A stretch of 64,000 nucleotides of DNA from Candidatus Pacearchaeota archaeon (GCA_017609285.1 JAFCEE010000001.1:18475-82474); one strand, 5' to 3'. Numbered from the stretch's first letter, positions 14,894 to 32,116 are shown. The notes: a model not told the origin generated them from the sequence alone. A program made the numbers and translations.

Positions 14894-14894
14894 A

Positions 14895-17800
14895 ATGAAA
14901 AAAGGAAAAATACTAAGCAAAAAAGAAGGGATAAGTTATTTAGAAATTTTAATCTTAATTATCTATACTTTTGCTTTTTCATATATTGTTTATCAGCCAA
15001 TGAAAAGTGTTTCTGCTCAAGAAAGTGATATAGTTTTATGGACTTGTAAAGAAACTAAAGATGAGTATGGAAGCAAGAAATGCCAGGAATATTTAAGTTC
15101 TGAGTGTAATGAGAAATGCAAGAGTGATTGTTTTCCTGGAACTCGTGATGAGTTTTCTGAATGTCAATTAGGATGTTGTATTGATTCTATTGGCAAATGT
15201 ATGAGCAAGGTTCCAAAAGCTGAATGTATAGATAAGGGAGGGAAATGGGAAAATGATGCAAATTGTAATCCTGGAAAAATTCCTCAATGTAAATTAGGTT
15301 GTTGTGTTTTAAATAATAATGTTAAGCCTTTAGTTACTGAAAAAGAATGTAGGTATTATACTTCTGAAGCCGGAATTAATCTTGATTCTGGTTTTGATTT
15401 TAGGCAGGGAATGAATGAGCCAGAATGTCTTGCACTTGCTTTAACTCAAGCTAAAGGTGCTTGTGTTATTGGGGAAAGTTGTAGATTTGTTAGTGAACAA
15501 GAGTGTTATTCATTAACTAATAGTTTAGCTAATTTTCATAAAGATTGGTTATGTACTCATCCTGAATTAAATAATAGTTGTAACATGACTGAAGAAACAA
15601 CTTGTGTAGATGGGAGAGATGGTGTCTATTTTGTAGATTCTTGTGGCAATATTGCTAATATTTATGATGCAAGTAAAGTAAATGATGTTAATTATTGGAA
15701 AGAAATTATTCCTGTTTCTGAATCTTGTGGTAGTAATGATGAAAAGGGCAATGCTAATTCTAAAACATGTGGTAATTGCAATAGGTTTTTAGGAAGTTCA
15801 TGTAGTCTTGCTTCAGAAACAAGTCCAGAATATGGAAATTATATTTGTAAACCCTTAGATTGTCCTAATGCTCCTGATACTAAAGGAACCAAAGATAGGA
15901 AAAATGGAGAAAGTTGGTGTGTTTATGAGTCAGTTATTGGAGAAGGTAGAGATGTTGTAGGAAGTAGACATTATAGATATTCTTGTGTGGAAGGAGAAGT
16001 TAAAATAGAGCCCTGTGCTGATTTTAGAAATGAGATTTGTGTTGAATCTGAAGTTGGAATTGCCGAGGGAGGAAGTGAGACTTTTTCTACTGCAAGTTGT
16101 AGATTAAATAGATGGCAGGAATGTTTGAATTATAATAATGCTGAGGGAAATACAAGAAAAGAGAAAACTGAGAATATGAAAGCTGCCTGTTCTAAAAATG
16201 AAGATTGTTTTGTTAAGGAAATAAAAATTGATTCAAAATTTAGTTTTAGTGTTTGCGTTCCTAATTATCCTCCTGGTTTTGATTTATCTGGAGAAAGCAA
16301 TGTGGGTAGTGACAAGGTAGCTGAGGAAATTTGCAATATGGCTGATAATAAGTGTACTGTAGTTTATGTTAAAGATTGGAAAGGTAGTTGGGATTGTAAA
16401 GTTAATTGTAATTGTGAGAAACCTGTTTTTACTAATCAAATGAATGAGTTTTGTTCAAGTTTAGGAGATTGTGGAGGTTATGTTAATGTTGAAGGAGAAT
16501 TTACTGATGAGGGTTATGAAGTTAAAGGTAAGGCTCCTAAAAAACTTTCAAGCAAGATTTTAAATGAAATTTTAAGTTATTCTAGTCCAGATAATAATCA
16601 GGCTGCTGAGCCCGGAGATATGTCTAAATATTATGGAAATTTAAGTATTTTGTCTAAAGGTGTTGGAAATGTTGATTATGATAATAAGGCTGATTTGGGG
16701 TGGGTTGGTTATGTGGCTGGTGCTGCTGGAACTGTTTATGCTGTTGCAGCAGCTTATGTTTTTATCGAAGGAGTAGATATTTCGCTAGGAGCATTTTTAG
16801 AGGAAGCTCCCTATGCTTTTGGAGACCTTTTTGGTTCTGCAGCACCAATTATGCGGGCATTTGCCAGAGTAGCAATTGGAGCAGCAATTGGAGCAGTAGT
16901 AGGACAATTAGTAGGAAAGGCAATTGGAGCTGAAGGAGAAGGAGCAGCTGCTATAGCTTATGCAGGAGCTGTGGGTGGGATATTTATTGGAATAGCTTGG
17001 GAAAGTGCTAGACTTACTTGGGAATTTGGACTTATCGGAGTTATTATTTTTGTAGTAGTATTACTCTGGACATGGATTACTGGATGGGGAGATGTTAGGG
17101 AAAGAGTAGTAAGTTTTAATTGTGAACCATGGCAGCCACCAGTTGGAGGAAGTGATTGTGAAAAATGCAATAAAGATGAGCAAGGATGTAGTAAGTATAA
17201 ATGTGAAAGTTTAGGAACAGCTTGTAGATTTTTAAATGAAGGGACAACAGAAGAAACATGCATAGCAAGTGAAAATGATAAAACTCCCCCAGAAATAAGC
17301 CAGTGGAATGAGATTTTAAGTGATGGATATAAGTATGAAAAAACAAGTGATGGGATAAAAATAAGGCAAAATAATGGAGAATGTATACCGGAGTTTAGCC
17401 AGGTAAATTTTGGGTTAATAACTAATGAAAGAGCTCAATGCAAATATGAGTTAGAAGCAAGTGCAAATTATGATTTAATGGAAAATTATTTTGGAGAAAG
17501 CAATCTTTACTTGATAAATCATTCAATGAGTTTAAGCATGCCTTCAGTAGATTCAATAGTTAATCAGTATAATGTAACAAAGGAATTTGTAGAAGAAAAA
17601 TATGGGGATTTTAAGCTTTATGTAAGATGTAGAGATGACTGGAATAATTTTAATATAAAAGAATATGTAATTGATTTATGTGTAAAGCCAGGACCAGACA
17701 TCACCCCCCCTATAATACAAAAAATAGTTCCTGAAACTGAAAGTTATCTTGCTTATAATGAAACTGAAAAAAATATAAAAGTTTATACTAATGAACCATC

Positions 17801-18584
17801 TTCTTGTAAATATTCTTCTCAGGATAAAGAATACGAAGCAATGGAAAATTCTATGAGTTGTAATATAAAGCTACAAGATCAAGAACAATATGGATGGCCT
17901 TGTTCAGTAACATTAACTAATCTAACAAAACAAGAAAATAAAATTTTTATAAGATGTAAAGATAAACCTTGGTTAGAAGAAAATAATGAAACAAGAAAAG
18001 CAAACTCAGAAAGTTATGAATATAATTTAATAGCAAGTAAGAATAAGTTGGAAATAATCTCAATAACACCAAATAAAACTCTTGAATTTGGAGACGAACC
18101 AGTTTCAATAGAACTTAAAGCACAAACTTCTGGGGGTGCAGAACAAGGAAAATCTGAATGTTATTTTAGTTTTTTAGGAGAAGAAGGTTCTTATATTTTA
18201 TTTAAAAATACTTTTTCATCTAGTCATAGCCAGTTATTTAATCAAATGTTAAGAGGAACTCATAAAATTTATGTGAAATGTGAAGATATTGCGGGGAATG
18301 TTGCTGAAGATTTTACTAGATTTAAGTTAAAAATAGACACTACTCCGCCAAGAATTGTGAGGGCTTATAATTTTGGTCAGCTTAAAATTATCACTAACGA
18401 GGATTCTGAATGTGTATATAGTCATGAAAATTGTAATTTTGTTTGGGAAAACGCAACTGAAATGTCAGGAATTCAAAAAATACATGAAACTTCTTGGAAA
18501 CAGGGAAAAACTTATTATGTAAAGTGTAAAGATTTGTGGGATAATAAGCCGGGAGGCTGTTCTATAATAATTAAAGCTGTTTGA
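14895..18584 (+). CDS. giant Cys-rich multi-TM surface protein (putative adhesin)
   Basis: About 1229 aa from the first ATG (track ORF starts at GTG 14871). N-terminal signal anchor; Cys-rich ectodomain (about 540 aa) with repeated C-x-LGCC motifs; Gly/Ala-rich cluster of 3-4 predicted TM helices (aa about 610-700); C-terminal about 520 aa of repeated beta-rich domains ending ...YYVKCKD. The N-terminal half is paralogous to ORF 19411..21045 and the C-terminal half to ORF 21076..23871. Confidence 0.6.
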   Translation: MKKGKILSKKEGISYLEILILIIYTFAFSYIVYQPMKSVSAQESDIVLWTCKETKDEYGSKKCQEYLSSECNEKCKSDCFPGTRDEFSECQLGCCIDSIGKCMSKVPKAECIDKGGKWENDANCNPGKIPQCKLGCCVLNNNVKPLVTEKECRYYTSEAGINLDSGFDFRQGMNEPECLALALTQAKGACVIGESCRFVSEQECYSLTNSLANFHKDWLCTHPELNNSCNMTEETTCVDGRDGVYFVDSCGNIANIYDASKVNDVNYWKEIIPVSESCGSNDEKGNANSKTCGNCNRFLGSSCSLASETSPEYGNYICKPLDCPNAPDTKGTKDRKNGESWCVYESVIGEGRDVVGSRHYRYSCVEGEVKIEPCADFRNEICVESEVGIAEGGSETFSTASCRLNRWQECLNYNNAEGNTRKEKTENMKAACSKNEDCFVKEIKIDSKFSFSVCVPNYPPGFDLSGESNVGSDKVAEEICNMADNKCTVVYVKDWKGSWDCKVNCNCEKPVFTNQMNEFCSSLGDCGGYVNVEGEFTDEGYEVKGKAPKKLSSKILNEILSYSSPDNNQAAEPGDMSKYYGNLSILSKGVGNVDYDNKADLGWVGYVAGAAGTVYAVAAAYVFIEGVDISLGAFLEEAPYAFGDLFGSAAPIMRAFARVAIGAAIGAVVGQLVGKAIGAEGEGAAAIAYAGAVGGIFIGIAWESARLTWEFGLIGVIIFVVVLLWTWITGWGDVRERVVSFNCEPWQPPVGGSDCEKCNKDEQGCSKYKCESLGTACRFLNEGTTEETCIASENDKTPPEISQWNEILSDGYKYEKTSDGIKIRQNNGECIPEFSQVNFGLITNERAQCKYELEASANYDLMENYFGESNLYLINHSMSLSMPSVDSIVNQYNVTKEFVEEKYGDFKLYVRCRDDWNNFNIKEYVIDLCVKPGPDITPPIIQKIVPETESYLAYNETEKNIKVYTNEPSSCKYSSQDKEYEAMENSMSCNIKLQDQEQYGWPCSVTLTNLTKQENKIFIRCKDKPWLEENNETRKANSESYEYNLIASKNKLEIISITPNKTLEFGDEPVSIELKAQTSGGAEQGKSECYFSFLGEEGSYILFKNTFSSSHSQLFNQMLRGTHKIYVKCEDIAGNVAEDFTRFKLKIDTTPPRIVRAYNFGQLKIITNEDSECVYSHENCNFVWENATEMSGIQKIHETSWKQGKTYYVKCKDLWDNKPGGCSIIIKAV

Positions 18585-18632
18585 TAATAAGGAAAATTTA
18601 TAAATAAGCTTGTCTTTGGAAAAATAAGGAAA

Positions 18633-19409
18633 ATGAATAGCAAAAGAGGACAATTGACTTTATTTATTATTGTAGCTATTGTAATTGTTGCTGTACTGCT
18701 TGTTTTGTTTTACCCTAGACTAAAAAAAATAGTAGTTCCGGGCAGCCCAAGTGTACAATTACAAGATTGTATAAATAGTAAGTTAGATGAGGCAGTAGAG
18801 TTAGTAAGTAAGAGGGGGGGCAGTATAGAGCCTGTGAATAACATAATGTATGGAGGTGAGAAGGTAGAGTATTTATGTTATACTAACCAATACTATCAAA
18901 CTTGTGTGATGCAACAACCTCTTTTGAGACAACATGTGGAAAGAGAGATCTTGGATTATATAAAGCCAGAAGCTTTATCCTGTATAAATAACTTAAAACA
19001 AAATTTAAGGAAAAAAGGGTGGCAGGTTTCTCAAGACAGAGAAGATATTTCTATTAGTATTGTTCCAAATAAGATTGAAATTACAGTTTCTGGTTTTTCT
19101 GCTGTTAAGGAGGATATTGGAGAAAGATATGATAAATTTGTTGTTGAAAAGAAAAGTCAACTTTATAATTTAATTATGTTAGCTACCTCTATTTTGAATT
19201 GGGAAGCTCGTTATGGTGATTCTGACATAAAAACTTACATGTTGTATTATCCAAATATGAAAGTTGAAAAATACAAACAAGAAGATGGTTCAAAGATTTA
19301 TACTCTAACTTATACACCAACTAAAGAAAAATTTGTATTTGCTTCAAGAAGTCTAAGTTGGCCTGCAGGATATGGTTTAGGCCAGACACATAAATCAATA
19401 ACAGTTTAA
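18633..19409 (+). CDS. class-III signal peptide (type IV pilin-like) protein, locus copy 2
   Basis: 258 aa. MNSKRGQ|LTLFIIVAIVIVAVLLVLF; paralog of 14126..14893 (shared ...GG.I.P.N...Y...KV.YLCY...YY..C... block). Confidence 0.55.
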   Translation: MNSKRGQLTLFIIVAIVIVAVLLVLFYPRLKKIVVPGSPSVQLQDCINSKLDEAVELVSKRGGSIEPVNNIMYGGEKVEYLCYTNQYYQTCVMQQPLLRQHVEREILDYIKPEALSCINNLKQNLRKKGWQVSQDREDISISIVPNKIEITVSGFSAVKEDIGERYDKFVVEKKSQLYNLIMLATSILNWEARYGDSDIKTYMLYYPNMKVEKYKQEDGSKIYTLTYTPTKEKFVFASRSLSWPAGYGLGQTHKSITV

Positions 19410-19410
19410 A

Positions 19411-21045
19411 ATGGAGAATAATATGATAATTAAAAAGATAAAAATAAGTTCAGTTATTTTAATGCTATTTATAAGTATTTTTGTTTTTTCATTAAATTTT
19501 TCAGTAAAGGCACAACAGGTAAAGTTTTGTTGTGAGAGAACTACTTATGGAGCGTGGTGTCAAAATGCTCCTGAAGAAGAATGTGATGAAGGTTATAATT
19601 GCGGAATAGATGAAAAAGGAAATCTATTAAAATGTAGAAAAACTCCTACTTCTTGCGAGGCTACTTCTTATTGTAGATTAGGATGTTGTTATGACAGTAG
19701 TGAAGGAATATGTATGGAAAAAACTCCCCAAAAAGTTTGTCAAGATTCAGGTGGGACTTGGAGTGATGATGCTGAATGTAATATTGCTCAATGCCAGCTT
19801 GGCTGTTGTATTTTAGGAACCCAAGCAGCTTTTGTAACCTTGACTAGATGTAAAAAATTAAGTAGTTTTTATGGCTTGATTACTAATTTTAGAAGAGATA
19901 TAGGAAATGAATTAAGTTGTATATCTCTTGCTTCATTAAGTGACCAAGGTGCTTGTGTTTATGAAGTTGATTTTGTTAAAACTTGTAAATTTACTTCTAG
20001 GCAAGAATGCAATAGTATTAAGCAAGGAATGAATATTGGAAATAAAACTGAATTAGGGGGCGGAAGGGTTACTAGTAATGTTGAGTTTTATAAAGATTTA
20101 TTATGCACTGCTGAAGAACTTGGAACTAGTTGTAGTATGACAAAACAAACTACTTGTATTGAAGGAAGAGATGAAGTTTATTTTGTTGATTCTTGTGGCA
20201 ATATAGCTAATATTTATGATGCTTCTAAAATTGATGATAAAGCTTATTGGAGGAAAAAAATAAGTAAAGTAGAAAGTTGTGGAAGTGGTTCTTCTAATAT
20301 TAATTCAAGAACTTGCGGTAATTGTAATTATTTTGAGGGTAGTATTTGTGGCGAAGGAAATGCTAAATATGGAGATTATATTTGTAAGGATTTAAATTGC
20401 CATGCTTCTGACACTAGTGATGGCAAATTACACAAACATGGAGAATCTTGGTGCAGTACTGATAAATATCCTGATTCTGTAGGTAGTAGATATTTTAGAC
20501 ATATTTGTATGAATGGTGAGGAAATTATTGAGCCATGCGCAGATTTTAGGCAGGAAATTTGTATTCAAGATTATATTGAATCTGGTGGTGTTAAGTTTTC
20601 TCAAGCTGGATGTAGAGTTAATAGGTGGCAGGATTGTTATAGTCAGACTGAAAAAAAAGATTGTGAAAATAAAGACAAAAGAGATTGTAAGTGGATTTTA
20701 AAAACTGATAAGGTTGCAGAAAGAGAAACTGAAGAAGGAAAATATCAGCCAATTAAAATTGGGTGTGTTCCTGAACATTCTCCAGGTTTGAAATTCTGGG
20801 AAGAAGGAGAAGCTCAAGGAACTTGTTCTCTTGCAAATTCTCAATGCGTGGTTGAATTTGTAAAAGAAGGTTTTTTAAAGGGGGGTGGTAAAAAATGTGA
20901 GGATAATTGTGAATGTTTAGAAGATTCTTGGAAACAAGAACAATTAGAAAAATGTGAACAAATTGGAGATTGTGGGGCTAAAACTAATTGGATTGGAAAT
21001 AAAGGAAATAAAGAAGGTTATGATATTAAAATAACTGAACAATGA
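19411..21045 (+). CDS. Cys-rich secreted/membrane-anchored protein (N-terminal-half paralog of the giant protein)
   Basis: 544 aa. N-terminal signal anchor; strong amino-acid and nucleotide similarity to aa about 50-560 of 14895..18584 (e.g. TTCIEGRDEVYFVDSCGNIANIYDAS vs TTCVDGRDGVYFVDSCGNIANIYDAS). Confidence 0.6.
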   Translation: MENNMIIKKIKISSVILMLFISIFVFSLNFSVKAQQVKFCCERTTYGAWCQNAPEEECDEGYNCGIDEKGNLLKCRKTPTSCEATSYCRLGCCYDSSEGICMEKTPQKVCQDSGGTWSDDAECNIAQCQLGCCILGTQAAFVTLTRCKKLSSFYGLITNFRRDIGNELSCISLASLSDQGACVYEVDFVKTCKFTSRQECNSIKQGMNIGNKTELGGGRVTSNVEFYKDLLCTAEELGTSCSMTKQTTCIEGRDEVYFVDSCGNIANIYDASKIDDKAYWRKKISKVESCGSGSSNINSRTCGNCNYFEGSICGEGNAKYGDYICKDLNCHASDTSDGKLHKHGESWCSTDKYPDSVGSRYFRHICMNGEEIIEPCADFRQEICIQDYIESGGVKFSQAGCRVNRWQDCYSQTEKKDCENKDKRDCKWILKTDKVAERETEEGKYQPIKIGCVPEHSPGLKFWEEGEAQGTCSLANSQCVVEFVKEGFLKGGGKKCEDNCECLEDSWKQEQLEKCEQIGDCGAKTNWIGNKGNKEGYDIKITEQ

Positions 21046-21075
21046 AAAGATTAAAATGAAAAAAGAAGAAGAAAA

Positions 21076-23871
21076 ATGATGAAAAATAAAAAAGCAAGAC
21101 AAACAATAGCAGGATTTGAAATTATAACTTTAGTTCTTGCTATAATTTCGTTTGTTGTTATTATTTCTGGTGGGGTGAGTGGGGAGAATGGTGGGGGAGG
21201 TGGGGGTGGGGATGGTAATTCAGATTTTGTAGAGGGTAAGATTGGTATTGAAAGGGGGGGGGCTAAAATATTTTTTCCAAATGATGAAAACCTCCCAGTT
21301 TACTCATCTATTGATGGTGGTAGAACATGGTCTGAAAGTTACTGGTATAACAGAAATAATATGAAAGAGTTCGCCTTACAAGATGATAAAATTGAAAGAA
21401 CACTTTTAGGGAGGCGACCATCAGTAGTAAGATTAAGGGAAGTGCGGGGTGCAAAAACTATGAGAGAAGGAGGAGGTGTTAGTGGAGCAAGTAGCTCTCC
21501 CAATCCAGCAAGAGGAATAAATTTTCAACAACCAGAACCTATTGGGGGGTTTAAAGTTACTGAAACAATGGCAGGAAGATTAGAAGAGATTGGTGTAGAA
21601 TTGGATGCGGGTGCAGAAATAGAAAAAATAGTTCCAGGAGATAAGGGTTTAATCCTAAAATTGAAGAGTGGAGAATCTGTTGAAATAGATGGAGAAAAAA
21701 TAAAAGAATTTGGGAGGATAACTGGAACAAGTAATAGTATAACAAATGCTTATCGTAATGCTCTTTATGAAGGTTTGAAGGGAGGTAAGGGGACTGTTGG
21801 TGAATTAATAGGAGAAGGAACAAGAGATATTGGTGGTGTATGGGAAGTTAGTTCTGAATCAATTAAGGGTACTGATATGGCAAAAGTTACTTTTAAAAAT
21901 AAAATAACAGGGGACGAGTTTACAAAAGAACTATCTACAAAAATGAGATTATCACAAATAAGTAGTATTGAGATAACAGGGCAAGCAGCTCCAAAGCTTC
22001 CATTATTAGGAGAAATACCTGTAATGGGAGGACTTGGTTATATTTTAGAAGGTCTTGCATGGGGTTTAGGAGTTGCTGGTCTTATACAATTAATAGGCGG
22101 ATTAGCGGGAATGGAAAGTAAAGCAATAAATTCAGCTAGTATTGCTGCAATAATTGGTGGCGGAGTAAAAGGTGCTGTAAGTGCAATTATAGGGAAAGGT
22201 GGTTTAATAACAAAAGATCTCGGACTCGCAATGAAAACAAAAGGGTTGTGGTGGAAATATACTCCTCATGCAGCTGGAATCGTAGCAGCAATAATCGTCT
22301 TTGGTTTAATGGATCAAGGTGAAAGCAAGAAAGTTGTGAATTTCAAATGTAATCCATGGGAAGCACCAACAGGAGGAAGTGATTGTGAAAAATGCAATGA
22401 TGGACTTTATCCATGTACAGAATATAGGTGCAAAAGTTTAGGACAAGCTTGTGAGTTGTTAAATCCTGGAACAGGAGAAGAAGCTTGTGTATGGGTAAAT
22501 CCAAAAGATGTAAACAGTCCAATAATAGAAACATGGGATAAAGTTTTAACAAAAGACCATAAGTATGACCCAAATACAGCAATAAGGCCTCCTGACAGGG
22601 GAGTAAAAATTTTGTATGAAAAGTCAAATGATGGTTGTATAAAAGCATTTACTCCATTAAGCTTTGGAATAACCTTAAATGAACCAGCACAATGTAAAAT
22701 TGATTATAACAGGACAGCAAAATATGAAGATATGAACTATTATTTTGGGGGTAGCAATATTTACAAATATAATCATACGCAAGTTATGAGGTTGCCTGGT
22801 CCAGATGCTGTAAATGCAGAAGCTCCTGAACTTAAAAATGATGGAAATTATAATTTATATGTAAGATGTCAAGATGCAAATGGAAATTCAAATGATGACT
22901 TATTTGTATTTAGTTTTTGTGTAGAAAGAGGCCCTGATGTAACCCCGCCTAAGATTGAAGGAACAAGCATAAGTAATGGGATGCCAATCCAATATGGTTT
23001 GAATCAGACAAAACTTGAAGTCTATGTAAATGAGCCTTCTGAATGTAAGTGGAGTAAAACAGACCAAGATTATGAAGCAATGGAACATAGTTTTGATTGT
23101 GCAAGCCATGTTTATGAGATGAATAACTTAATGTTATATAAGTGTGAAGGAATTTTAACAGATTTAGAAGATAGAAAAGACAATGTCTTTTACTTTAGAT
23201 GTAAAGATCAGCCTTGGTTAACTGGAGAAAAACAGGTTGATAGAAATGTAAATGTTGAGAGTTATAAATTTATATTGAAGGGAACACAACCCCTCAATAT
23301 AGTAAATGTAAAGCCAAATGAAACTATAACTGGCTACTCAACTCTAGCTACTGTAAATTTAGAAGTAGAAACCGAAGCTGGCTACAATCTCGGTGATAGC
23401 TGGTGCAGTTATTATTGCATATCTGTAGGAGAAGAAGCTTCTGTTAGCGAAGATAGATGGATACAAATGTTTGAAACAGGAACTAATATACATAAACAGA
23501 GACTTGACTTGCCTGCTGACGAATATATTTGTGAGTTTCAGTGTGTAGATTTAGGAGGAAATGCTGCTTACTCAAACACAACTTTCAAAGTTGAAATAGA
23601 TGAAGAAGCTCCTAAAGTAGTTAGAGTTTACCAAGATTCTGGTAAACTAAAGATAATTACAGATGAAAAATCTATCTGCTCTTATTCTACTAACAAAGAA
23701 AAAGAGTGTAGTTTTGACATAGATGAAGGAACTAATATGCCTTATGCTAATAGCAAGGAACATTTTGCTGACTGGGAAGAAGGTAAAACTTATTATGTAA
23801 AATGTAAAGATAGTAATGAGAGACAGCCTTTGCCTAATGAGTGTAGTATTGTGGTAAGAGCTGAGAGTTAA
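21076..23871 (+). CDS. multi-TM surface protein (C-terminal-half paralog of the giant protein)
   Basis: 931 aa. N-terminal TM; Gly-rich stretch (GGVSGENGGGGGGGDG); Gly/Ala-rich TM cluster; then FKCNPWEAPTGGSDCEKCN..., homologous to FNCEPWQPPVGGSDCEKCN... of the 1237-aa protein, ending ...YYVKCKDSNERQPLPNECSIVVRAES. Confidence 0.6.
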   Translation: MMKNKKARQTIAGFEIITLVLAIISFVVIISGGVSGENGGGGGGGDGNSDFVEGKIGIERGGAKIFFPNDENLPVYSSIDGGRTWSESYWYNRNNMKEFALQDDKIERTLLGRRPSVVRLREVRGAKTMREGGGVSGASSSPNPARGINFQQPEPIGGFKVTETMAGRLEEIGVELDAGAEIEKIVPGDKGLILKLKSGESVEIDGEKIKEFGRITGTSNSITNAYRNALYEGLKGGKGTVGELIGEGTRDIGGVWEVSSESIKGTDMAKVTFKNKITGDEFTKELSTKMRLSQISSIEITGQAAPKLPLLGEIPVMGGLGYILEGLAWGLGVAGLIQLIGGLAGMESKAINSASIAAIIGGGVKGAVSAIIGKGGLITKDLGLAMKTKGLWWKYTPHAAGIVAAIIVFGLMDQGESKKVVNFKCNPWEAPTGGSDCEKCNDGLYPCTEYRCKSLGQACELLNPGTGEEACVWVNPKDVNSPIIETWDKVLTKDHKYDPNTAIRPPDRGVKILYEKSNDGCIKAFTPLSFGITLNEPAQCKIDYNRTAKYEDMNYYFGGSNIYKYNHTQVMRLPGPDAVNAEAPELKNDGNYNLYVRCQDANGNSNDDLFVFSFCVERGPDVTPPKIEGTSISNGMPIQYGLNQTKLEVYVNEPSECKWSKTDQDYEAMEHSFDCASHVYEMNNLMLYKCEGILTDLEDRKDNVFYFRCKDQPWLTGEKQVDRNVNVESYKFILKGTQPLNIVNVKPNETITGYSTLATVNLEVETEAGYNLGDSWCSYYCISVGEEASVSEDRWIQMFETGTNIHKQRLDLPADEYICEFQCVDLGGNAAYSNTTFKVEIDEEAPKVVRVYQDSGKLKIITDEKSICSYSTNKEKECSFDIDEGTNMPYANSKEHFADWEEGKTYYVKCKDSNERQPLPNECSIVVRAES

Positions 23872-23881
23872 GTCGTAGGAT

Positions 23882-24184
23882 TTAACTTAATTTTTTAATT
23901 AATTCTGCTTTTATCAACTTCTTTTTTTCTTTTGATACTGAAAATAAAAATTTTTTAATCATTTTTTCAGAAATAGTAAAAATATAATTTAATTTAATAA
24001 TGCTTTCTTTTAATGCTCCTTCTTTTTTCGTTAAAGGAATTCCTTTCATTTTGATATTGCTTGTTATTCCTGCAACTACAACATTCCCTTGTTCTTCAAA
24101 TAAGACTAAAGCAGGTCTTGTTTTAATTTCAAAAGTATCTGTAAATTGTACTTGAGCTAGAATAATATCTCCAAAATTATACAT
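23882..24184 (-). CDS. MazF/PemK-family toxin (type II toxin-antitoxin)
   Basis: 100 aa. GDIILAQVQFTD...KTRPALVL aligns with E. coli MazF GDLIWVDFDPTKGSEQAGHRPAVVL; the C-terminal LIKAELIKKL resembles LQLIKAKINVLI. Confidence 0.65.
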   Translation of the reverse strand: MYNFGDIILAQVQFTDTFEIKTRPALVLFEEQGNVVVAGITSNIKMKGIPLTKKEGALKESIIKLNYIFTISEKMIKKFLFSVSKEKKKLIKAELIKKLS

Positions 24185-24421
24185 TTATACCTCTTCCCAA
24201 AATTCGTCTTGTTTATTATCCCAAATTTCCCTCATTTTTGGTTGCTGTATTTTATGTAAAAATTCATCATACTGATTTCTCTGTTTCATTTTTATAAAAA
24301 TCGTTGCCATTTTTTCTAGTAATTCATTGTAAGTTTGTCTAGGATATTCCTTGCTTTTCTTAAGCATTTCAATTGTCTTTTTATCTAATAATATTGTTGT
24401 CTTTTCTGTCATATATATCAC
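24185..24421 (-). CDS. putative antitoxin partner of the MazF-like toxin
   Basis: 78 aa ORF immediately upstream of the toxin on the same strand with a 0-nt gap, which is typical antitoxin-toxin order. Confidence 0.4.
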   Translation of the reverse strand: MIYMTEKTTILLDKKTIEMLKKSKEYPRQTYNELLEKMATIFIKMKQRNQYDEFLHKIQQPKMREIWDNKQDEFWEEV

Positions 24422-24472
24422 CTATACATATATTATATATTAACTATATAAACTTTTCGATTAAAATTCTGC

Positions 24473-24584
24473 TGAACATTTTACAGAATGGGTAGAAGGA
24501 CAGACTTATTATGTAAAATGCAAAGATTCTAATGAGAGACAGCCTGCTCTTTTTCTTGTTCAGTTATAGTGGGAGCTGAGTCGA
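24473..24584 (+). repeat. degenerate copy of the 3' end of the giant surface-protein gene (gene fragment B)
   Basis: gaacattttacagaatgggtagaaggacagacttattatgtaaaatgcaaagattctaatgagagacagcct matches 23757..23830 (the end of 21076..23871) with substitutions, then diverges or frameshifts (…KCKDSNERQPALFLVQL*). Confidence 0.55.
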
Positions 24585-24636
24585 CTTAAACAGCTTAAAA
24601 AATTTATAATGGATTCTGAGACAAGAGAGTATGTAA

Positions 24637-24924
24637 ATGAAAAGAGTAGACAAAAGATTAGATGAAAGACTAGGGGGACTTTATGATGGGATGACTGGAT
24701 TAGAAAGCAGAATGGATGGTCTATATGAAGGGCTAAATGCAAAGATGGATGGGCTTAATATAAAGATGGATGCTGTTTTGAATGCTATTTCTGTTTTTTC
24801 TAGAGCTTATGAAAAGTCTCAAGAGCTATATACTAATGTTTTAAAGGATTTGGGCTATATTAAAGAAAGACTTGATAGTAGGATAGGATTTGCAAGAAAA
24901 GATGAAGAATCAGAGAAGTCTTAG
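24637..24924 (+). CDS. hypothetical coiled-coil protein with MDGL repeats
   Basis: 95 aa ORF; repeated (R/K)MDGL(Y/N) heptad-like units. Confidence 0.3.
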   Translation: MKRVDKRLDERLGGLYDGMTGLESRMDGLYEGLNAKMDGLNIKMDAVLNAISVFSRAYEKSQELYTNVLKDLGYIKERLDSRIGFARKDEESEKS

Positions 24925-25068
24925 AGTTTTTATTTTAAAGTGTGAGGAGTGCAAGATAGCCTTTACCTAATTCTTGTTCTATAATTGTGAGGGTTGAGAG
25001 CTAATAGCATTAAAGAAACAAAATATGAAAATTATTGACAATTAAAAGAAAATTATAGCCATTTTATT

Positions 25069-25836
25069 CTATTTCTGTAGAAAATAAAAAAATGGTTTGT
25101 AAAGAAGTGCAGGTTCACTTACTTTAAAATTTTTTATTCCAGTCTCTCCTATCTCAAGAGAAAACCAACCAACAAATGACTTAACATATTCATCAAATCT
25201 TGATCTGTATTCAGGTTTAACTTCTCTTCTTAATGCTCTAAGAAATCCTTTATTTACTCTTAATTCTCTTGCAGTTCCATAAACTACCAAATCATATCCA
25301 TCTAAAGAGCGAGAAGGGATGCTGAAAGGTTCATTTGAATCTCCTCTTGTCAATAAACTTATTAAATTTTTTACTTTGCCTTCTTCTGCCAATCCTCTAT
25401 CTGCAGAAATTGTTGTTTTATAACCTCCACCAATACCTAAAACTTTTCCAATTGTACGTTTATAATCTACATTTATCGTTTTCTTTCTTTTCAGGAAACT
25501 TAGAAAGCCTTTTTTTCTTTCTCTTAGCATTATATCCATTTGAATAAAATAATAGAAAAATTACATTGTATATGTCGGCAACATTCTTCTTTCTAAACCA
25601 CTACCCTCATTCAAATATCTTAAACTGTTTGGTAATGCTCTAGCTTGTCGATTATCATGAGTTACATATATAGAGGAAGTGACTCTCCTACCTAGAGCAT
25701 TCATGTGGGCATTAGCTATAGGTACAATCACATCTTCTAAACCAGGATCAACAGCAAATTTTGTTTTATATCCTGCTACTATAACCCCTGCTCTCGTTGA
25801 AACCCATCCTCTTAATTTCCTTCCTAATCTTGGCAT
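25069..25836 (-). pseudogene. hypothetical protein with internal duplication, interrupted by an in-frame TAA
   Basis: ORFs 25561..25836 and 25069..25539 are in the same frame on the minus strand (25836-25539=297). They are joined by TAA plus 21 stop-free nt (…LPTYTM*FFYYFIQMDIML…). Internal repeat AGYKTKFAVDPGL / GGGYKTTISADRGL. Locally elevated GC. Confidence 0.35.
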
Positions 25837-25932
25837 ACAATAAACATTCCATCTTTATTTAAATATCTTATGTTTATATAGTATATACTATAAAATAGTT
25901 ACTTTTATAAATCTAAGAAAACATAAAATAAT

Positions 25933-26202
25933 ATGTTTGGGTATGTTAGAAGGTTGTATCAAGGTATAAAGGAAAAGTATAATTCATATAGACGGGAATA
26001 TAAAAGAAGTCCGATTGTTTCTTTTTTTAGGTCTATTTTTGATTACATTCTTGGACGACCAAAACCATTTGTTCTACCTCCAGAGCAGCAAGAGAAATTT
26101 GAAAGTGGGTTAGATGAAAAATTAAGGTTAAACCATGATATTTTTTATGGCCCTGGAAAAATTGTTTTAAGAAAAAAAAGTCTTGTTGATAGACTTGATT
26201 AA
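25933..26202 (+). CDS. hypothetical protein
   Basis: 89 aa ORF in the island; no motif recognised. Confidence 0.25.
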   Translation: MFGYVRRLYQGIKEKYNSYRREYKRSPIVSFFRSIFDYILGRPKPFVLPPEQQEKFESGLDEKLRLNHDIFYGPGKIVLRKKSLVDRLD

Positions 26203-26270
26203 TTTAGATTTTGATTTGTATGGCTTACAACATTTTTTAACTAAAATTTAGGGTCTATATCTCTTTTAAC

Positions 26271-26360
26271 GAAGGTAAATCTGACTATCAAGTGTAAAGA
26301 TAGTAATGAGAAACAGCCTTTGCCTAATGAGTGTAGTATTATTATTAGGGCTGAATCCTG
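26271..26360 (+). repeat. second copy of the 3' end of the giant surface-protein gene (gene fragment C)
   Basis: gaaggtaaatctgactatcaagtgtaaagatagtaatgagaaacagcctttgcctaatgagtgtagtattattattagggctgaatcctga is about 90% identical to 23782..23871 (…KCKDSNEKQPLPNECSIIIRAES*). Confidence 0.6.
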
Positions 26361-26519
26361 ATTCTAAACTTGAAACATTCAAGAGTGAAGTTGGAGAATG
26401 AAAATAATAATAACAAATTTTATATTGTGGAGAAGTCATGAGAAGAAAGATGCCGGCTTGTTATGTAACTTATGATAAAAAACAGAAGAAGTTAAAAAAG
26501 TTGAAGTCTAATTAAGAAA

Positions 26520-27329
26520 ATGAAACCTAAACTTAAAGAAGTAAAAGCCAGATCAATTCTAATAAGAAGTAAACTACCAGAAACAGATTATGTTATTAAT
26601 CCTTATACTGGTTGTGTTCATAGTTGTGTGTATTGTTATGCGAAATTCATGTCAAGAATGACTGGACATAAAGAAGGTTGGGGAAATTATTGTGATGTTA
26701 AAATTAATTTGCCTGAAGTTTTAAGTAGGGAACTAGAAAGGGCAAAAAAAGGGATAGTATTGTTAAGTTCAGTTACAGATCCCTATAATCATTTAGAGAA
26801 AAAATATCAGCTAACAAGAAAAGCTTTAGAATTATTAACTAAATATAAGTTTTCTGTTTCGATACTTACCAAATCAGCTTTGGTTGTGAGAGATGTTGAT
26901 GTTTTAAGAAAATTAAAGGAAGTTGAGGTCGGAATTACTATCACAACCTTAGACAATAGAGTAAGGAAAAAATTTGAGCCATCTTCTTCTGTGGAAGAGA
27001 GGATAAGAGCTTTAGAATTGCTTCATAAAGAAGGGATTAGAACCTATGCTTTTGTTGGTCCTATTCTTCCATATTTAACAGATGTTGAAGCTATAGTAAA
27101 TAGATTAGAGGGGATAGTAGATTTTTTCATGTTTGAAGACCTAAACATTTTACCTTCAAATAAAGACAAAATTTTAAGTATAGTAAAAGAAAACTGGCCT
27201 GAATTAGAAGAAAAATATAAGGAAATTCTGAAAGGAAAAGCTGAGTTTTGGAAAGTATTAAGAGAAAAAATACAGGAAATAGCAAGAGAGAAAGGTTTAG
27301 ATTTTAGAATTTATTTTGAACATAATTAA
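26520..27329 (+). CDS. radical SAM protein, SplB/DNA-photolyase-like family (COG1533-like)
   Basis: 269 aa. INPYTGCVHSCVYCYA (CxxxCxYCYA cluster motif of the SplB-like family). Confidence 0.7.
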   Translation: MKPKLKEVKARSILIRSKLPETDYVINPYTGCVHSCVYCYAKFMSRMTGHKEGWGNYCDVKINLPEVLSRELERAKKGIVLLSSVTDPYNHLEKKYQLTRKALELLTKYKFSVSILTKSALVVRDVDVLRKLKEVEVGITITTLDNRVRKKFEPSSSVEERIRALELLHKEGIRTYAFVGPILPYLTDVEAIVNRLEGIVDFFMFEDLNILPSNKDKILSIVKENWPELEEKYKEILKGKAEFWKVLREKIQEIAREKGLDFRIYFEHN

Positions 27330-27359
27330 GTTTTTATATCGAGGAAAATTAATAAGTAA

Positions 27360-28091
27360 ATGAAACAAAAACCCTGGACAAGTTGGGAAAACAAAACCGA
27401 GCAGGAAGAAGAGGCGATAAAAAGTTTGAGAGCAGCTAAGAAAATTATTCTAAATAATATACCAAAAAATAAGATTTTGGCAATATATGTGGGAGGTAGT
27501 TTTATCAGAAGAGAAATGACTCAGAAGAGTGATGTAGATACTTGGACAATAGTTAAGGATAATAAACTTCTTAGCAAGTTTGAAAAATTAGAAAAGGAGT
27601 ATAAGGAAAAATATAAACCAAACTTAAGTCTAAGAGCTTTTTCTCTGTGGGAATTAAAAAATAACAAAAGATATTTGAAAAGAAAGAAACCAAGAGCAAA
27701 TCCGGGAAGATTTGTGAAGAAAATTAAAAATTATTTTTTAATTTATGGCAAACCTTTAAACACTAAAGATTTTATAGTGAGGAGTGACGAAGAAGATTTA
27801 AAGAAATTAATTAAAGCTTTTAATAAAACTTTCTTGCCTTTGTATGAAAAAGGCAAGCTAAGATTTTCTGATATCCTTAAACAGGTATTTTGGTTAGTTG
27901 AGTTAGAACAAAAAATTAAAGGTAAAGAAGTTCCTTATTCTTGGAAAAAATTGGTAAGGTCAATAGAAAACAAAAATCATATTATTCATGAAGCTTTGAA
28001 ATTTAGAGTGAAGAGAATAAAAGACGAAGGGAAAAGAAAGAGGTTTATAGTTAAATTGAAAAAGTATTTGAAAAGTTTGGAAGGAAAATGA
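27360..28091 (+). CDS. pol-beta superfamily nucleotidyltransferase with C-terminal helical domain (ANT/AadA-like architecture)
   Basis: 243 aa. ILAIYVGGSFIRREMTQKSDVDTWTIV (GS...D.D NTase motif) followed by about 150 aa of helical, basic C-terminal domain. Confidence 0.55.
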   Translation: MKQKPWTSWENKTEQEEEAIKSLRAAKKIILNNIPKNKILAIYVGGSFIRREMTQKSDVDTWTIVKDNKLLSKFEKLEKEYKEKYKPNLSLRAFSLWELKNNKRYLKRKKPRANPGRFVKKIKNYFLIYGKPLNTKDFIVRSDEEDLKKLIKAFNKTFLPLYEKGKLRFSDILKQVFWLVELEQKIKGKEVPYSWKKLVRSIENKNHIIHEALKFRVKRIKDEGKRKRFIVKLKKYLKSLEGK

Positions 28092-28876
28092 TAATAGATT
28101 GCCATGTTCACCTACCTTTATCGAAGACAAAAGGGAAATTTAAAGATAAGAAAGCAAAACTTTTGAGAGATATAGAGAGGAATGGAGTTGATTGTGCTAT
28201 ATTAATTCCAGATAATCTTACTGGTTCTAATATTGGAGATTTAGATACTTGTTTGAAATTAGTTGAAAATGAGGAAAAATTATTTTTGTTAGGAACTATA
28301 GATGTAAGAAAAGAAGGAATGAGAAGTATAAGTAAGCTTGATTTTTTGTTCAAAAAAGGAAAAATTAAAGGAATTAAAATTTATCCTGGACACGACCCAA
28401 TATATCTGACTGATAAGAGGCTTATTCCTCTTTATAAATTATGCATAAAATATAATCTGCCTATAATGATTCATACTGGTGGTGGGAAAATGAAAAAAGC
28501 AAGGGAATACAATGATCCAAAATATATAGTTAAAATAGCTAAGAAGTTTCCTAAAATTAAGATTATTATAAGTCATTATTTTGAACCAAATTTAGAATAT
28601 TGTTATAATCTAACTAAAAATTTTATGAGTATTTATTATGACACCTCAGGTTTAGCTGATAAAGATGTTGTAAAAGAAAGTGGATTAAAAACTATAAAAG
28701 ATGTTTTGATAAAAATAGCAAGAAAAAAACCAAATAATGTTTTATTTGGAACAGATTATGCTTGTTGTTCAATTAAGAAGCATATTAAATTGATAAGCTC
28801 TTTAAATATTTCTAAAGAGATGAAAGATAAAGTTTTTTATAAAAATTCTAAGAGATTATTTAGATTAAATTTATAA
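28088..28876 (+). CDS. amidohydrolase-2 family (TIM-barrel metal-dependent hydrolase)
   Basis: 262 aa. MIIDCHVHLP (HxH metal ligands), ...IMIHTGG..., ...FGTDYAC. ATGA overlap with the upstream NTase. Confidence 0.65.
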   Translation: MIIDCHVHLPLSKTKGKFKDKKAKLLRDIERNGVDCAILIPDNLTGSNIGDLDTCLKLVENEEKLFLLGTIDVRKEGMRSISKLDFLFKKGKIKGIKIYPGHDPIYLTDKRLIPLYKLCIKYNLPIMIHTGGGKMKKAREYNDPKYIVKIAKKFPKIKIIISHYFEPNLEYCYNLTKNFMSIYYDTSGLADKDVVKESGLKTIKDVLIKIARKKPNNVLFGTDYACCSIKKHIKLISSLNISKEMKDKVFYKNSKRLFRLNL

Positions 28877-28898
28877 ATCTCTCTTCTTTTTTTTAAAT

Positions 28899-29432
28899 AT
28901 GAGAAAAAGAGGAAAAAAGAGGAATGGCAAAAGAGGGCAACTTAGAATATCTTTTGGCATGCTTTTTTCTATAATCTTGATTATAGCTTTTATTGCTGTA
29001 GCTGTATATGCCATAATTATGTTCCTTAACATAAAAAAATGTGCAGACACTGGCATGTTCAAACAGGATTTGCAGGAAGAAATAAATAGGGCGTGGACTT
29101 CTGATAGTTCATCTGAAATTTTTTCTGGTAATTTGCCATCTAGTTTAGATTATGTTTGTTTTGTAGATGTTTCTGAGGAAGGTAGAGGAGAACATAAAGA
29201 GTATTACGACAAACTGAAGAAGTATGGTTATTCTCCTCAGATAAATATGTTTTTCTGGCCTTTGAAAAATACTTGTGAGGGGCAGAGAGGTTTTGAAATA
29301 AAGCATATAGATATAAAAAAAATTACAGCAGAAGAAAATCCTTATTGTATAAAGAGTATTAGGGGCAAGGTTGAAGTAAAAATTGAAAAAGATTTTTATG
29401 ATGCCTTAGTTAAGATAAGCAAGATAAGTTAA
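28899..29432 (+). CDS. class-III signal peptide (type IV pilin-like) protein
   Basis: 177 aa. ...NGKRGQ|LRISFGMLFSIILIIAFIAVAVYAII. Confidence 0.5.
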   Translation: MRKRGKKRNGKRGQLRISFGMLFSIILIIAFIAVAVYAIIMFLNIKKCADTGMFKQDLQEEINRAWTSDSSSEIFSGNLPSSLDYVCFVDVSEEGRGEHKEYYDKLKKYGYSPQINMFFWPLKNTCEGQRGFEIKHIDIKKITAEENPYCIKSIRGKVEVKIEKDFYDALVKISKIS

Positions 29433-29433
29433 A

Positions 29434-30384
29434 ATGCAGAAAAAAGGTTTTGAGTTTAGTTTTGCGTGGTTATTCGCGATAATAGTTGGAGCAATTATTT
29501 TGTTTCTCGCTATTTTTGCTATAAGTAAGTTGATAAAGACAAGTCGTTACCAGCTTGATACAATTACAGCTAAACAGTTGAGCATAATTTTTGAACCTCT
29601 CGAAACAGGTCTGGCGAGTGGAAAAAGTAATATGGCAAGATTAAGAGAAGAAACAAGAATCTATAATGATTGTATTGATGAAGGAAATTTTGGTTTGCAA
29701 AGAATTTCGCTTTCAACAAAGCAGAGTTTAGGAAAAGAGTGGCAAGAACCTGGCGCTGAAATCGACATACCTAATAAATATATTTTCTCTTCTGGTATCG
29801 AAGAAGGCGAGGAAGTTTATTTTTTTTCTAAGCCATTTGAAATGCCGTGGAAAGTTTCTGAAATTATTTTTTTATCTACTAAACAGTATTGTTTTGTTAA
29901 TGCTCCTGAAGAAATTGAAGATGATGTTTTAGGTTTGATGTTGGGGAATGTTAAGTTAAATAATTGTAGTGTGGGGGATATAAAAGTATGTTTTGGTTCT
30001 GGCTTAGATTGTGATATTACAGTTAAAGGACAATGTTTTGGTGGTTTTTCAGATTGTGAAAGCGAATATGATTATGGTTTTGTAGAAAAACAAGGAGAAA
30101 GCTTATTCTATACTGGAAGTTTAATTTACGCTGCTATTTTCTCCAGTCCTGATATTTATGAGTGTAATGTTAAAAGATTAATGAAAAGATTAGTTCGGCA
30201 AGCTCTTATTTTTAAAGATGAAGCTGATTTTTTAAGTGTAAAATGTGGCACTCTTCCTTTGTCTGGCTTGTTACAATTAATTAGTGTTGCTAAAATAAAA
30301 AAATCATCTGACCTTTTATTGGTAAGGCAAGTAGCAAGAGAGGTAGAAGAACAAAATCAAGCTTCACAGTGTAATTTATGGTAA
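29434..30384 (+). CDS. class-III signal peptide (type IV pilin-like) protein
   Basis: 316 aa. MQKKG|FEFSFAWLFAIIVGAIILFLAIF (KG-F-E motif with Glu at +5); 1-nt gap from the upstream gene. Confidence 0.5.
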   Translation: MQKKGFEFSFAWLFAIIVGAIILFLAIFAISKLIKTSRYQLDTITAKQLSIIFEPLETGLASGKSNMARLREETRIYNDCIDEGNFGLQRISLSTKQSLGKEWQEPGAEIDIPNKYIFSSGIEEGEEVYFFSKPFEMPWKVSEIIFLSTKQYCFVNAPEEIEDDVLGLMLGNVKLNNCSVGDIKVCFGSGLDCDITVKGQCFGGFSDCESEYDYGFVEKQGESLFYTGSLIYAAIFSSPDIYECNVKRLMKRLVRQALIFKDEADFLSVKCGTLPLSGLLQLISVAKIKKSSDLLLVRQVAREVEEQNQASQCNLW

Positions 30385-30385
30385 A

Positions 30386-30913
30386 ATGTTAATAGAAAAG
30401 AAAATAAGCTCAAAACGCTCGCAATTTAAAATACAACAAATGGCATTTATGTTGTTAGCTGTAGTATTGTTTTTTATTTTAGTTGCTTTGATTTGGATTA
30501 CAATTCAACAAAGAAATTTACATAAACAAGCAACTCAACTTGAAGAAGAAAAAGCTGTTTTTTTATCTGAATTTTTGTCTGGTTCCTCTGAGTTTAGTTG
30601 TAGTAGGGAGATGGGCTCTTATTGTATAGATACAGATAAATTGGTTGTTCTAGAAAATATGAGTGTATATAGAGATTTCTGGCCGGTTGCTTTTATTCAA
30701 GTAAGAAAATTAGATAGGCAAGTTGAAGAGGTAGAATGTAGTAAATTGAATTATCCTAATTGTAATCTTTTTGAGGTATATGAAAATAAGAATGTTAAAA
30801 GTAAAAGTTCTATAGGAAATTTTGTTGCCTTGTGTAGATATGAAAACATTAATGGTTTTCCTAAAAAAATCTGCGAACTTGGTAAATTTATAATTGGTTA
30901 TGAGATAAAATAA
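30386..30913 (+). CDS. class-III signal peptide (type IV pilin-like) protein
   Basis: 175 aa. ...SSKRSQFKIQQMAFMLLAVVLFFILVALI; 1-nt gap. Confidence 0.45.
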   Translation: MLIEKKISSKRSQFKIQQMAFMLLAVVLFFILVALIWITIQQRNLHKQATQLEEEKAVFLSEFLSGSSEFSCSREMGSYCIDTDKLVVLENMSVYRDFWPVAFIQVRKLDRQVEEVECSKLNYPNCNLFEVYENKNVKSKSSIGNFVALCRYENINGFPKKICELGKFIIGYEIK

Positions 30914-30914
30914 A

Positions 30915-31409
30915 ATGGGGATAAAAAACAAGAGAATAGGTAAGAAGGCGCAGGAGGAGATGATTGGGTTTGTATTGATAATTGTTTTAGTTAGTGTGAT
31001 AGCTCTGATTTTTCTTGCTATCTCTATCAGAAAACCAGCAGTACAGGAAAATAAAGAGATAGAGAGTTTTTTACATTCCTCCTTACTTTTAACTACAGAC
31101 TGTCAACCAAGTCCAGAAGAGATTTATGATTTAAAAGATTTAATTGGAGCTTGTTGGAACAATGAGAGATGTTTATCTGGAGAAAAAGCTTGTGGTGTCT
31201 TGAATGTTACAGTTTACGAGCTGCTTGAAAATTTACGAGTAGGTGAAGAAAGCAAATATAAAGGTTATGTGTTTAGAATTTATGATGAAAGAAATGAGAC
31301 TATATTTTATCTGACAAAAGGAAATTACACGTCTTCAAAAACAGCAACAGACTCTCTTTTTCCAATACAGGGAGAGAATATACATGTAGTGCTAGAGATA
31401 TTTTATTAG
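30915..31409 (+). CDS. class-III signal peptide (type IV pilin-like) protein
   Basis: 164 aa. ...GKKAQ|EEMIGFVLIIVLVSVIALIFL; 1-nt gap. Confidence 0.5.
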   Translation: MGIKNKRIGKKAQEEMIGFVLIIVLVSVIALIFLAISIRKPAVQENKEIESFLHSSLLLTTDCQPSPEEIYDLKDLIGACWNNERCLSGEKACGVLNVTVYELLENLRVGEESKYKGYVFRIYDERNETIFYLTKGNYTSSKTATDSLFPIQGENIHVVLEIFY

Positions 31410-31447
31410 TAATGGTTGTAGATTAATGAAATTTAAATAATATATAT

Positions 31448-32089: not shown

Positions 32090-32116
32090 GAAAACTGGCC
32101 AGTAACAGTAACTTCT

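Follow-up and report, generated by a model that had tools for sequence, protein, structure and literature searches.

A DPANN archaeon carries, directly behind the gene for a giant cysteine-rich surface protein, a series of displaced copies of that gene's own 3′ end, arranged as direct repeats around small cargo genes. The DNA in question is a 64,000-nucleotide (nt) stretch from Candidatus Pacearchaeota archaeon (GCA_017609285.1, JAFCEE010000001.1:18475-82474), which is referred to as the window throughout. The last 68–115 nt of the giant gene (21076..23871) are found three times downstream, as copies named B, B2 and C, with the live gene end denoted copy A. We read B, B2 and C as scars of homology-anchored recombination that would have proceeded without a dedicated integrase, and assign this reading a probability of about 0.5; it is preferred because the searches described below yielded no integrase, no exact core, no common hairpin and no viral or plasmid match.

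Gene-end copies behind a giant surface-protein gene

An initial annotation of this DNA had proposed that the end of gene 21076..23871 recurs downstream, and blastn establishes that this recurrence is real. Two of the downstream repeats had been recognized, whereas the third, B2, had been overlooked (tblastn E 2.6e-4, blastn E 0.007). The gene and its four end copies are located as follows.

21076..23871, plus strand: giant Cys-rich surface-protein gene, 931 amino acids (aa), intact by open reading frame (ORF) and translation; flanks the island on the left and supplies the repeated end
23758..23871, plus strand: copy A, live 3′ end of the giant gene (...EHFADWEEGKTYYVKCKDSNERQPLPNECSIVVRAES-stop)
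24474..24589, plus strand: copy B, displaced gene-end relic reading EHFTEWVEGQTYYVKCKDSNERQP, then a frameshift, then ..CSVIVGAEST-stop
~24937..25004, plus strand: copy B2, the most degenerate gene-end relic, reading R-stop-PLPNSCSIIVRVES-stop
26271..26360, plus strand: copy C, gene-end relic with in-frame stop (KCKDSNEKQPLPNECSIIIRAES-stop); strain-variable breakpoint

Copy B is degenerate and frameshifted, as had been noted. It is 86% identical to A across the first 72 nt (blastn E 1e-19), loses the frame near 24546 and runs on in the shifted frame to its new end. Copy C retains its in-frame stop and is 85% identical to A over 86 nt with a 2-nt gap, or 89% over 65 nt (E 2e-22). Alignment of the copies, which had been suggested as a means of defining exact repeat boundaries, supports their relation and reveals no common boundary, the left ends being unequal at 115, 68 and 90 nt. 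No other relics of the giant gene or of the pilin-like gene that lies beyond the cargo were found in the island. A further 40-nt match at 2115..2153, in AT-rich intergenic sequence, was judged to be due to chance.

Relics as former ends of working alleles

The substitutions that separate the relics from the live gene end are mostly of a kind tolerated in a functional protein. Copies A and C differ at 8 of 66 nt, giving three conservative amino-acid changes (R>K, V>I, V>I). Ten of 72 nt differ between A and B, including a serine codon changed from AGT to TCT and two more silent changes. Even B2, which differs from A at 13 of 45 nt, retains 12 of 15 codons including the stop. To each pair of A and a relic we applied random substitutions in matched number; the observed BLOSUM score without a new stop was reached in at most 1e-4 of 20,000 trials for every pair (P = 1e-4 for B, <5e-5 for B2 and 5e-5 for C). 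As the changes are almost all synonymous or conservative, divergence was gained mostly while each copy served as a working gene end, and not by drift of junk sequence in place. Judged by this signature, B, B2 and C each formerly terminated a working allele, in keeping with the earlier proposal that each copy restores the gene end: all three relics carry the mark of selection expected of genuine ends. The copies encode a terminal motif that is conserved family-wide, with three to four conservative differences per copy. A TCT (Ser) codon is common to B and B2 at a position where A and C have GAG, so the copies represent at least two allele lineages.

Related loci delimit the island

The native neighbor of the giant gene is apparent from related loci. 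In 9 of the 10 more distant loci that have both genes, the distance from the giant-gene stop to a pilin-like gene is 1–225 nt (L002, L003, L006, L008-L011, L013, L014), compared with 5 kb in the window; the remaining locus, L012, holds an unrelated 1.8-kb insertion. Since relatives join the giant gene to the pilin-like gene, the entire interval 23872..28876 is island. The view that the segments between the copies are inserted cargo is thus borne out by empty sites in related genomes. The empty site itself had been predicted differently, with the giant gene followed directly by a radical-SAM cassette as the flank; instead, the pilin-like gene (28899..29432) normally follows, and the radical-SAM set belongs to the island and is missing from a 99.6%-identical strain (L001). 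From left to right, the island consists of A, the MazF/antitoxin genes, B, a 95-aa ORF, B2, o156 and o91 on the minus strand, an 89-aa ORF and C, followed by the radical-SAM, nucleotidyltransferase and amidohydrolase genes and then by the pilin-like gene. The cargo and the right flank comprise the following features.

23882..24184, minus strand: MazF/PemK-type toxin gene, convergent with the giant gene (Pfam PF02452, E 1.3e-9)
24185..24421, minus strand: putative antitoxin gene, 78 aa, abutting the toxin start (position, size, DUF7557)
24422..24460, minus strand: promoter-side end of the toxin-antitoxin (TA) cassette, where cross-species similarity ends
24637..24924, plus strand: 95-aa ORF (o95) with MDGL-type repeats, cassette 2a
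25069..25539, minus strand: o156, 156-aa gene, second of the o91-o156 module
25561..25836, minus strand: o91, 91-aa gene, first of the o91-o156 module
25933..26202, plus strand: 89-aa ORF (o89), whose start region is also present in the island of a sister species (L019)
26520..27329, plus strand: radical-SAM gene, cassette 3 (Pfam Radical_SAM, 1.4e-19)
27360..28091, plus strand: Pol-beta-type nucleotidyltransferase gene, cassette 3 (Pfam Polbeta/NTP_transf_2)
28088..28876, plus strand: Amidohydrolase_2/TatD-like gene, cassette 3, right end of the island (Pfam PF04909, 5e-24)
28899..29432, plus strand: pilin-like gene, right flank of the island, with an N-terminus resembling a class III signal peptide

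The arrangement A-TA-B-o95-B2-o156/o91-o89-C is also present on L001, a 4.7-kb contig assembled independently from another sample and 99.6% identical to the window with 14 mismatches. It is therefore neither chance nor an assembly artefact.

Strain variation and turnover of the island

The L001 contig matches the window at 99.6% up to position 26354, the end of copy C; a 70-nt spacer and the pilin gene come next, so that cassette 3 (2.5 kb) is absent. Beyond 26354/26355 identity falls to 96.6%. The L001 spacer and pilin gene look like a natural empty junction. This strain difference, which shows copy C taking part in recombination, is most simply read as a homologous exchange in which copy C crossed over with the live gene end of an empty-site strain. 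The end of copy A is identical in the window and in L001. At copy C, the window has about 27 extra nt (26355..26381) before similarity to the L001 post-gene spacer returns, which changes the last codons of the copy (RAES-stop in the window, RAEG-stop in L001). Within the giant gene, 6 of the 14 L001 mismatches fall within 53 nt (22928..22980); this cluster might reflect either local hypervariability or a short patch of recombination.

A second pair of strains, L018 and L019, is 99.7% identical and differs by a 3.7-kb segment that was deleted in L018 between 25-nt direct repeats. The deletion (L019 2140..5815 compared with L018 9250..9274) yields a 110-aa fusion ORF. As such strain comparisons show, the island turns over through deletion.

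Cargo exchange between lineages

Part of the cargo is far more similar across species than the genes that surround it. The MazF cassette (23882..~24460) is 81–82% identical at the nucleotide level to cassettes that two other species (L021; L022-24) have at this junction, where it likewise lies directly after the giant gene, convergent with it and ahead of the pilin gene, whereas the core flanks of these loci have 57–64% nt and 42–54% aa identity to the window. At third positions of conserved codons, identity amounts to 70–80% in the cassette and 48–65% in the flanks. The TA cassettes of L021 and L022 have no gene-end repeat on their flanks. More distant members of the TA family reside at other loci.

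In the sister species represented by L019, nucleotidyltransferase and amidohydrolase genes fill the corresponding place, separated from the pilin gene by 22 nt, and are 92% and 89% identical in nucleotides to those of the window; the giant gene, the pilin gene, p316, p175, p164 and the regulator of the same cluster are 65–76% identical. In addition, L019 1893..2351 contains pseudogene pieces of o91 (its 5′ part), o89 and the radical-SAM gene that are 80–92% identical to the intact genes of the window. Among these, the radical-SAM pieces reach 84–92%, and the start of o89 (window 25906-25984) matches L019 1928-2005 at 84%. The island of L019 also holds four extra genes, encoding a 227-aa protein, an HD-domain protein and two GNAT acetyltransferases.

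With cargo 81–92% identical across species, compared with 57–76% for the flanks, cargo is evidently exchanged between lineages at this site. That the organisms co-occur follows from the origin of the contigs in sibling samples (3300033141, 3300033145, 3300033149). A search with p316 for closer relatives found none above 70% identity except the source itself, the next species being at 69–72% aa identity.

Proposed recombination without a dedicated integrase

We searched the island and its surroundings for a machinery that could have placed the copies. No integrase, recombinase or remnant thereof was detected in the island ORFs with Pfam, PHROGs, NCBIfam and PADLOC, no recombinase in 10 further candidate ORFs of the 64-kb window, and no integrase among the Pfam-annotated genes listed for related loci fetched with flanks. 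The copies have no exact core longer than 7–8 nt in common: A, B and C share just TAATGAGA and ACAGCCT, and B2 lacks even these. A conserved hairpin was likewise not found in the copies, with folding z-scores of -1.8 to +1.1 and no significant DNA secondary structure. Viral contigs scanned with the repeat, the radical-SAM protein and o156 gave no match, nor did phage and plasmid collections searched by blastn with the whole island. The sole match in a pattern scan of metagenome DNA for the repeat was a chance match in a bacterial MBOAT gene (L005).

These results bear on the initial annotation in two ways. Its picture of an insertion scar holds in outline, for the foreign origin of the cargo, the empty site and the restoration of gene ends, and its statement that no integrase was found is upheld. 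Its explanation by attL/attR-like site-specific integration is not supported: integrase, exact core, hairpin and virus or plasmid matches are all missing from these searches, including the proposed comparison of the segments with virus and plasmid databases, and the MazF cassette of two other species occupies the same site without flanking repeats.

Between the giant gene and the pilin-like gene, small accessory cassettes now make up an island that varies among strains and species; they are the MazF TA pair, the 95-aa ORF, the o91-o156 pair together with the 89-aa ORF, and the set of radical-SAM, nucleotidyltransferase and amidohydrolase genes. For its origin we infer the following recombination pathway and order of events. 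Donors would have been related archaea whose cargo also sat just behind the giant gene, and an incoming piece would start inside the donor's gene end and carry the donor's downstream cargo with it. Host homologous recombination would join this piece within the conserved gene end, while an illegitimate or microhomology join might seal the other side; alternatively, the piece might first circularize and then enter through a single crossover. Each such event would leave an intact end on the gene and a truncated duplicate, comprising the last 23–38 codons, next to the cargo. Existing copies could then serve as substrates for later homologous recombination by which cassettes are added or removed. 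A possible microhomology is seen at the join of the TA cassette and copy B, where the TA promoter is followed by ATCTAAACATTTA in donor-type loci and by TGCTGAACATTTT, with which B begins, in the window; it is suggestive only. Equally compatible with the data is a sub-scenario in which A and C would be the ends of one composite 2.4-kb insertion, with B and B2 as internal relics from earlier hosts. A further-reaching version, which we put forward tentatively and deem rather unlikely, is that the conserved gene end acts as a shared homology "landing pad" and that its fragments travel with cassettes (TA, nucleotidyltransferase-amidohydrolase and others) through host recombination alone, amounting to an integrase-free, integron-like exchange among co-occurring DPANN archaea at one hotspot.

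Several observations weigh against homology-anchored recombination. All relics are cut within the last 68–115 nt of a 2.8-kb gene, where a wider spread of lengths would be expected, and this preferred cut zone looks att-like. One and the same TA cassette occupies exactly the same junction in three lineages whose flanks, at 57–64% nt identity, seem too diverged for simple homologous recombination. No donor with "gene end B then o95" or "B2 then o156-o91" was found among the poorly sampled close relatives. Gene-end duplicates occur in none of the 16 related loci, which suggests that the process is rare or lineage-specific. Finally, the recombinase search covered only 64 kb of the genome. Comparison with L019 revealed no visible mosaic breakpoint in the 3′ part of the giant gene. 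The L019 post-gene spacer was also considered as a counterpart of the DNA after B2 and gave no match there, its best, weak match being the pilin upstream region.

Alternative origins of the copies

The first two of these objections would be met by a decayed series of integrative elements accreted in tandem, similar to cis-mobilizable elements (CIMEs). According to this explanation, a recombinase targeted the giant-gene 3′ end by means of an attP carrying a gene-end mimic, serial integrations produced the order attL-X1-att-X2-att-X3-attR, and the integrases were later deleted or acted in trans. Such accretion is an established model in bacteria (PMC5704250). It requires each copy to resemble a functional gene end, as is observed, and it could account both for the confinement of the copies to the last 68–115 nt and for the reuse of one junction by the same TA cassette in distant species, neither of which is explained by homology-anchored recombination; the region also clearly loses genes through deletion. 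Nevertheless, no integrase or remnant was seen in the island, in the 10 other window ORFs or in the gene lists of related loci, the segments measure just 0.35–1.3 kb, and the copies share exact strings of only 7–8 nt with unequal left boundaries. The lack of repeats around the TA cassettes of L021 and L022 and of any match in viral contigs, phage or plasmid collections points in the same direction. We therefore regard tandem accretion as unlikely, though still deserving consideration.

Less probable still is that extra tandem paralogues of the giant gene were once duplicated downstream and lost their bodies by deletion, leaving 3′ ends behind, which the initial annotation had offered as deleted copies of a tandem adhesin array. 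Two paralogous modules do stand in tandem at this locus (14114..18584 and 18633..23871), and functional paralogues would leave the same signature of purifying selection. However, a third paralogue between the giant and pilin genes is found in none of the 16 related loci, L018 and L019 included, and no other fragment of a gene body is left in the island. Three independent deletions would be needed, each stopping within the last ~100 nt. Moreover, the relics are 85–89% identical to A, compared with 65% for the gene end of the resident paralogue (14871..18584). We consider this origin improbable.

That the copies are silent cassettes from which the C-terminus of the surface protein is altered by gene conversion, as in pilE/pilS antigenic variation, is highly improbable: although they are partial, promoterless surface-gene copies directly downstream of an expressed one, they differ by only three to four conservative residues in a conserved terminal motif and thus lack the diverse variable region of pilS, copy B is frameshifted, unrelated cargo genes lie between the copies, and the A end is invariant between two strains, with no mosaic of the expressed gene.

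Relation to known systems

The closest parallels to homology-anchored recombination come from bacterial toxin loci. Type VI secretion system (T6SS) clusters of Vibrio cholerae contain arrays of orphan effector ends and immunity genes (Kirchberger et al. 2017, PMC5361080). Serial displacement with 3′ fragments at T6SS and rhs loci has been attributed to homology-facilitated illegitimate recombination (PMC5361080), which cites Jackson et al. 2009 for the rhs C-terminal displacement arrays. As in those arrays, truncated 3′ fragments trail the full-length gene and are interspersed with horizontally acquired genes, the fragments stem from once-functional, horizontally acquired alleles, a homologous anchor with an illegitimate join is proposed in place of an integrase, and the arrays vary between strains. 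In contrast to rhs and T6SS loci, where the displaced tips are variable toxin domains each followed by an immunity gene, what recurs here is the non-toxic, conserved terminus of an Ig-like surface domain together with its stop codon. The cargo genes, which lie in mixed orientation, bear no relation to the giant protein, and the organism belongs to the DPANN archaea.

Integrative elements and CIMEs of the ICESt1/ICESt3 type are known to accrete in tandem at target-gene 3′ ends (reviewed in PMC5704250). Our locus resembles such arrays in its empty site in relatives and in the direct repeats that bracket cargo, and departs from them in having no integrase or relic of one, no exact core, no conjugation or replication genes, segments of 0.35–1.3 kb and an archaeal host. 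In archaea, partial tRNA gene fragments remain beside integrated viruses and plasmids. Like these scars, displaced 3′ fragments of a target gene would here record past integrations; unlike them, the target is protein-coding and no integrase is detectable, be it a partitioned one of the SSV type or another. Fragments of tRNA genes are also treated in PMC9897764. The locus also shares with integron arrays its small cassettes, TA modules among them, which are separated by a recurring sequence of ~70–115 nt, but it has no intI and no attC-like palindromic folding, and its cassettes, in mixed orientation, bring promoters of their own.

The tiny genomes of DPANN archaea contain few recognizable mobile elements, and the exchange of accessory genes in this group is poorly understood. 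The four gene-end copies provide a concrete trail of exchange events, and mark a hotspot behind a conserved surface-apparatus gene at which co-occurring species and strains trade TA cassettes and others. The locus further suggests that the role played elsewhere by integrases can be filled by host recombination with a conserved gene end as its anchor. It is also a practical marker of strain-level gene flow in uncultured DPANN archaea. Should a hidden recombinase be found, the locus would instead define a new att site of archaea, located within a protein-coding gene.

Cargo genes of the island

The toxin gene ends 10 nt from the giant-gene stop. Its product scores 38.6 bits against PF02452 (cut-off 23.1), confirming the MazF/PemK toxin of the initial annotation, matches the MazF-like family phrog_1936 and has 3857 homologues, mostly in DPANN archaea. 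The adjacent 24185..24421 plausibly encodes the antitoxin that had been placed there, with a DUF7557 match of 23.6 bits, slightly under the cut-off of 25. Both genes are kept as a pair in L021, L022 and L025, and alignments of the TA cassette with these loci span ~23886 to ~24457, including a conserved AACTATATAAA box. By domain and gene order, 23882..24421 is a predicted type II MazF/PemK TA pair. The 95-aa ORF behind copy B has no match in Pfam, PHROGs, NCBIfam or PADLOC. Apart from the TA, radical-SAM, nucleotidyltransferase and amidohydrolase genes, no cargo ORF could be assigned to a family in these collections.

The region of o91 and o156 had been described as a TAA-interrupted, broken gene with elevated GC. 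Homologues of o156 comprise eight representatives among 1.8 billion, all of which align from their own residue 1–5, and L029 carries a matching pair of 87-aa and 163-aa genes, the 87-aa protein being 54% identical to o91. As o156 homologues start at their own first residues and the pair recurs in L029, the supposed interrupted gene resolves into two genes. We conclude that o91-o156 constitutes a conserved two-gene module and that o91 does not represent the N-terminal part of an interrupted gene. Its GC content is merely 0.36 compared with about 0.30. The confident AlphaFold2 model of o156 (predicted local distance difference test score 80) has no fold match in the PDB. That o91 and o156 are paralogues was considered and rejected, BLASTP detecting no similarity between them.

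In cassette 3, the radical-SAM protein matches NCBIfam TIGR04470, "radical SAM mobile pair protein B", at 3e-67, under the cut-off, and the phage family phrog_13321 at 1e-58. PADLOC returned only weak candidate-system matches for this protein and the nucleotidyltransferase, too little to call a defence system. Directly before the radical-SAM gene, 26439..26516 encodes a Lys-rich ORF of 25 aa with one Cys (MRRKMPACYVTYDKKQKKLKKLKSN), which might be a small substrate peptide or a chance ORF.

Host and surface-gene cluster

The window is chromosomal DNA (GC ~30%) of a Pacearchaeota-like DPANN archaeon and includes genes for PCNA, primase, FtsZ, ribosomal proteins and an S-layer-like protein. Its closest named relatives are metagenome-assembled genomes (MAGs) of Pacearchaeota, Woesearchaeota and Nanoarchaeota, and the giant-protein family has 90 homologues in the same three groups, the nearest at 62% identity. 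A contig of a Woesearchaeota-labelled MAG (L016, CAYZDX010000041.1, 4880..5056) stops within a giant gene whose product is 90% aa identical to that of the window. It may belong to the same species as the window organism, and difficulty in assembling this locus would fit with the contig breaking off ahead of the repeated 3′ end.

The giant gene belongs to a cluster that is strongly conserved in more than 15 related loci, in the order primase, PCNA, [p258-giant], [p258-p544-giant], the pilin-like 177-aa gene, p316, p175, p164, an HVO_A0114-type regulator and the S-layer-like gene. The N-termini of several small cluster proteins can be read as class III signal peptides. Synteny with L002, L003, L008-L014 and L018-L022 extends over window 13072..34611, where two giant Cys-rich proteins and five small proteins with class III (type IV pilin-like) N-termini are encoded next to primase/PCNA and the S-layer-like gene. 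This cluster may encode a surface filament or attachment apparatus. Within its tandem modules, the giant gene of module 1 (14871..18584, 1237 aa) corresponds in one ORF to two genes of module 2, 19411..21045 (544 aa) and 21076..23871 (931 aa), which makes them a split or fused paralogue pair.

Elsewhere in the window, Rfam gave a 132-nt tRNA match at 53235..53366, probably intron-containing, for which ARAGORN gave none. In other species, nucleotidyltransferase/HEPN-type (MNT/HepT-like) pairs are inserted at further intergenic points of the surface-gene cluster (L022 2161..3110, L021 11585..12213, L022 8791..9766), and TA-type modules recur across the cluster.

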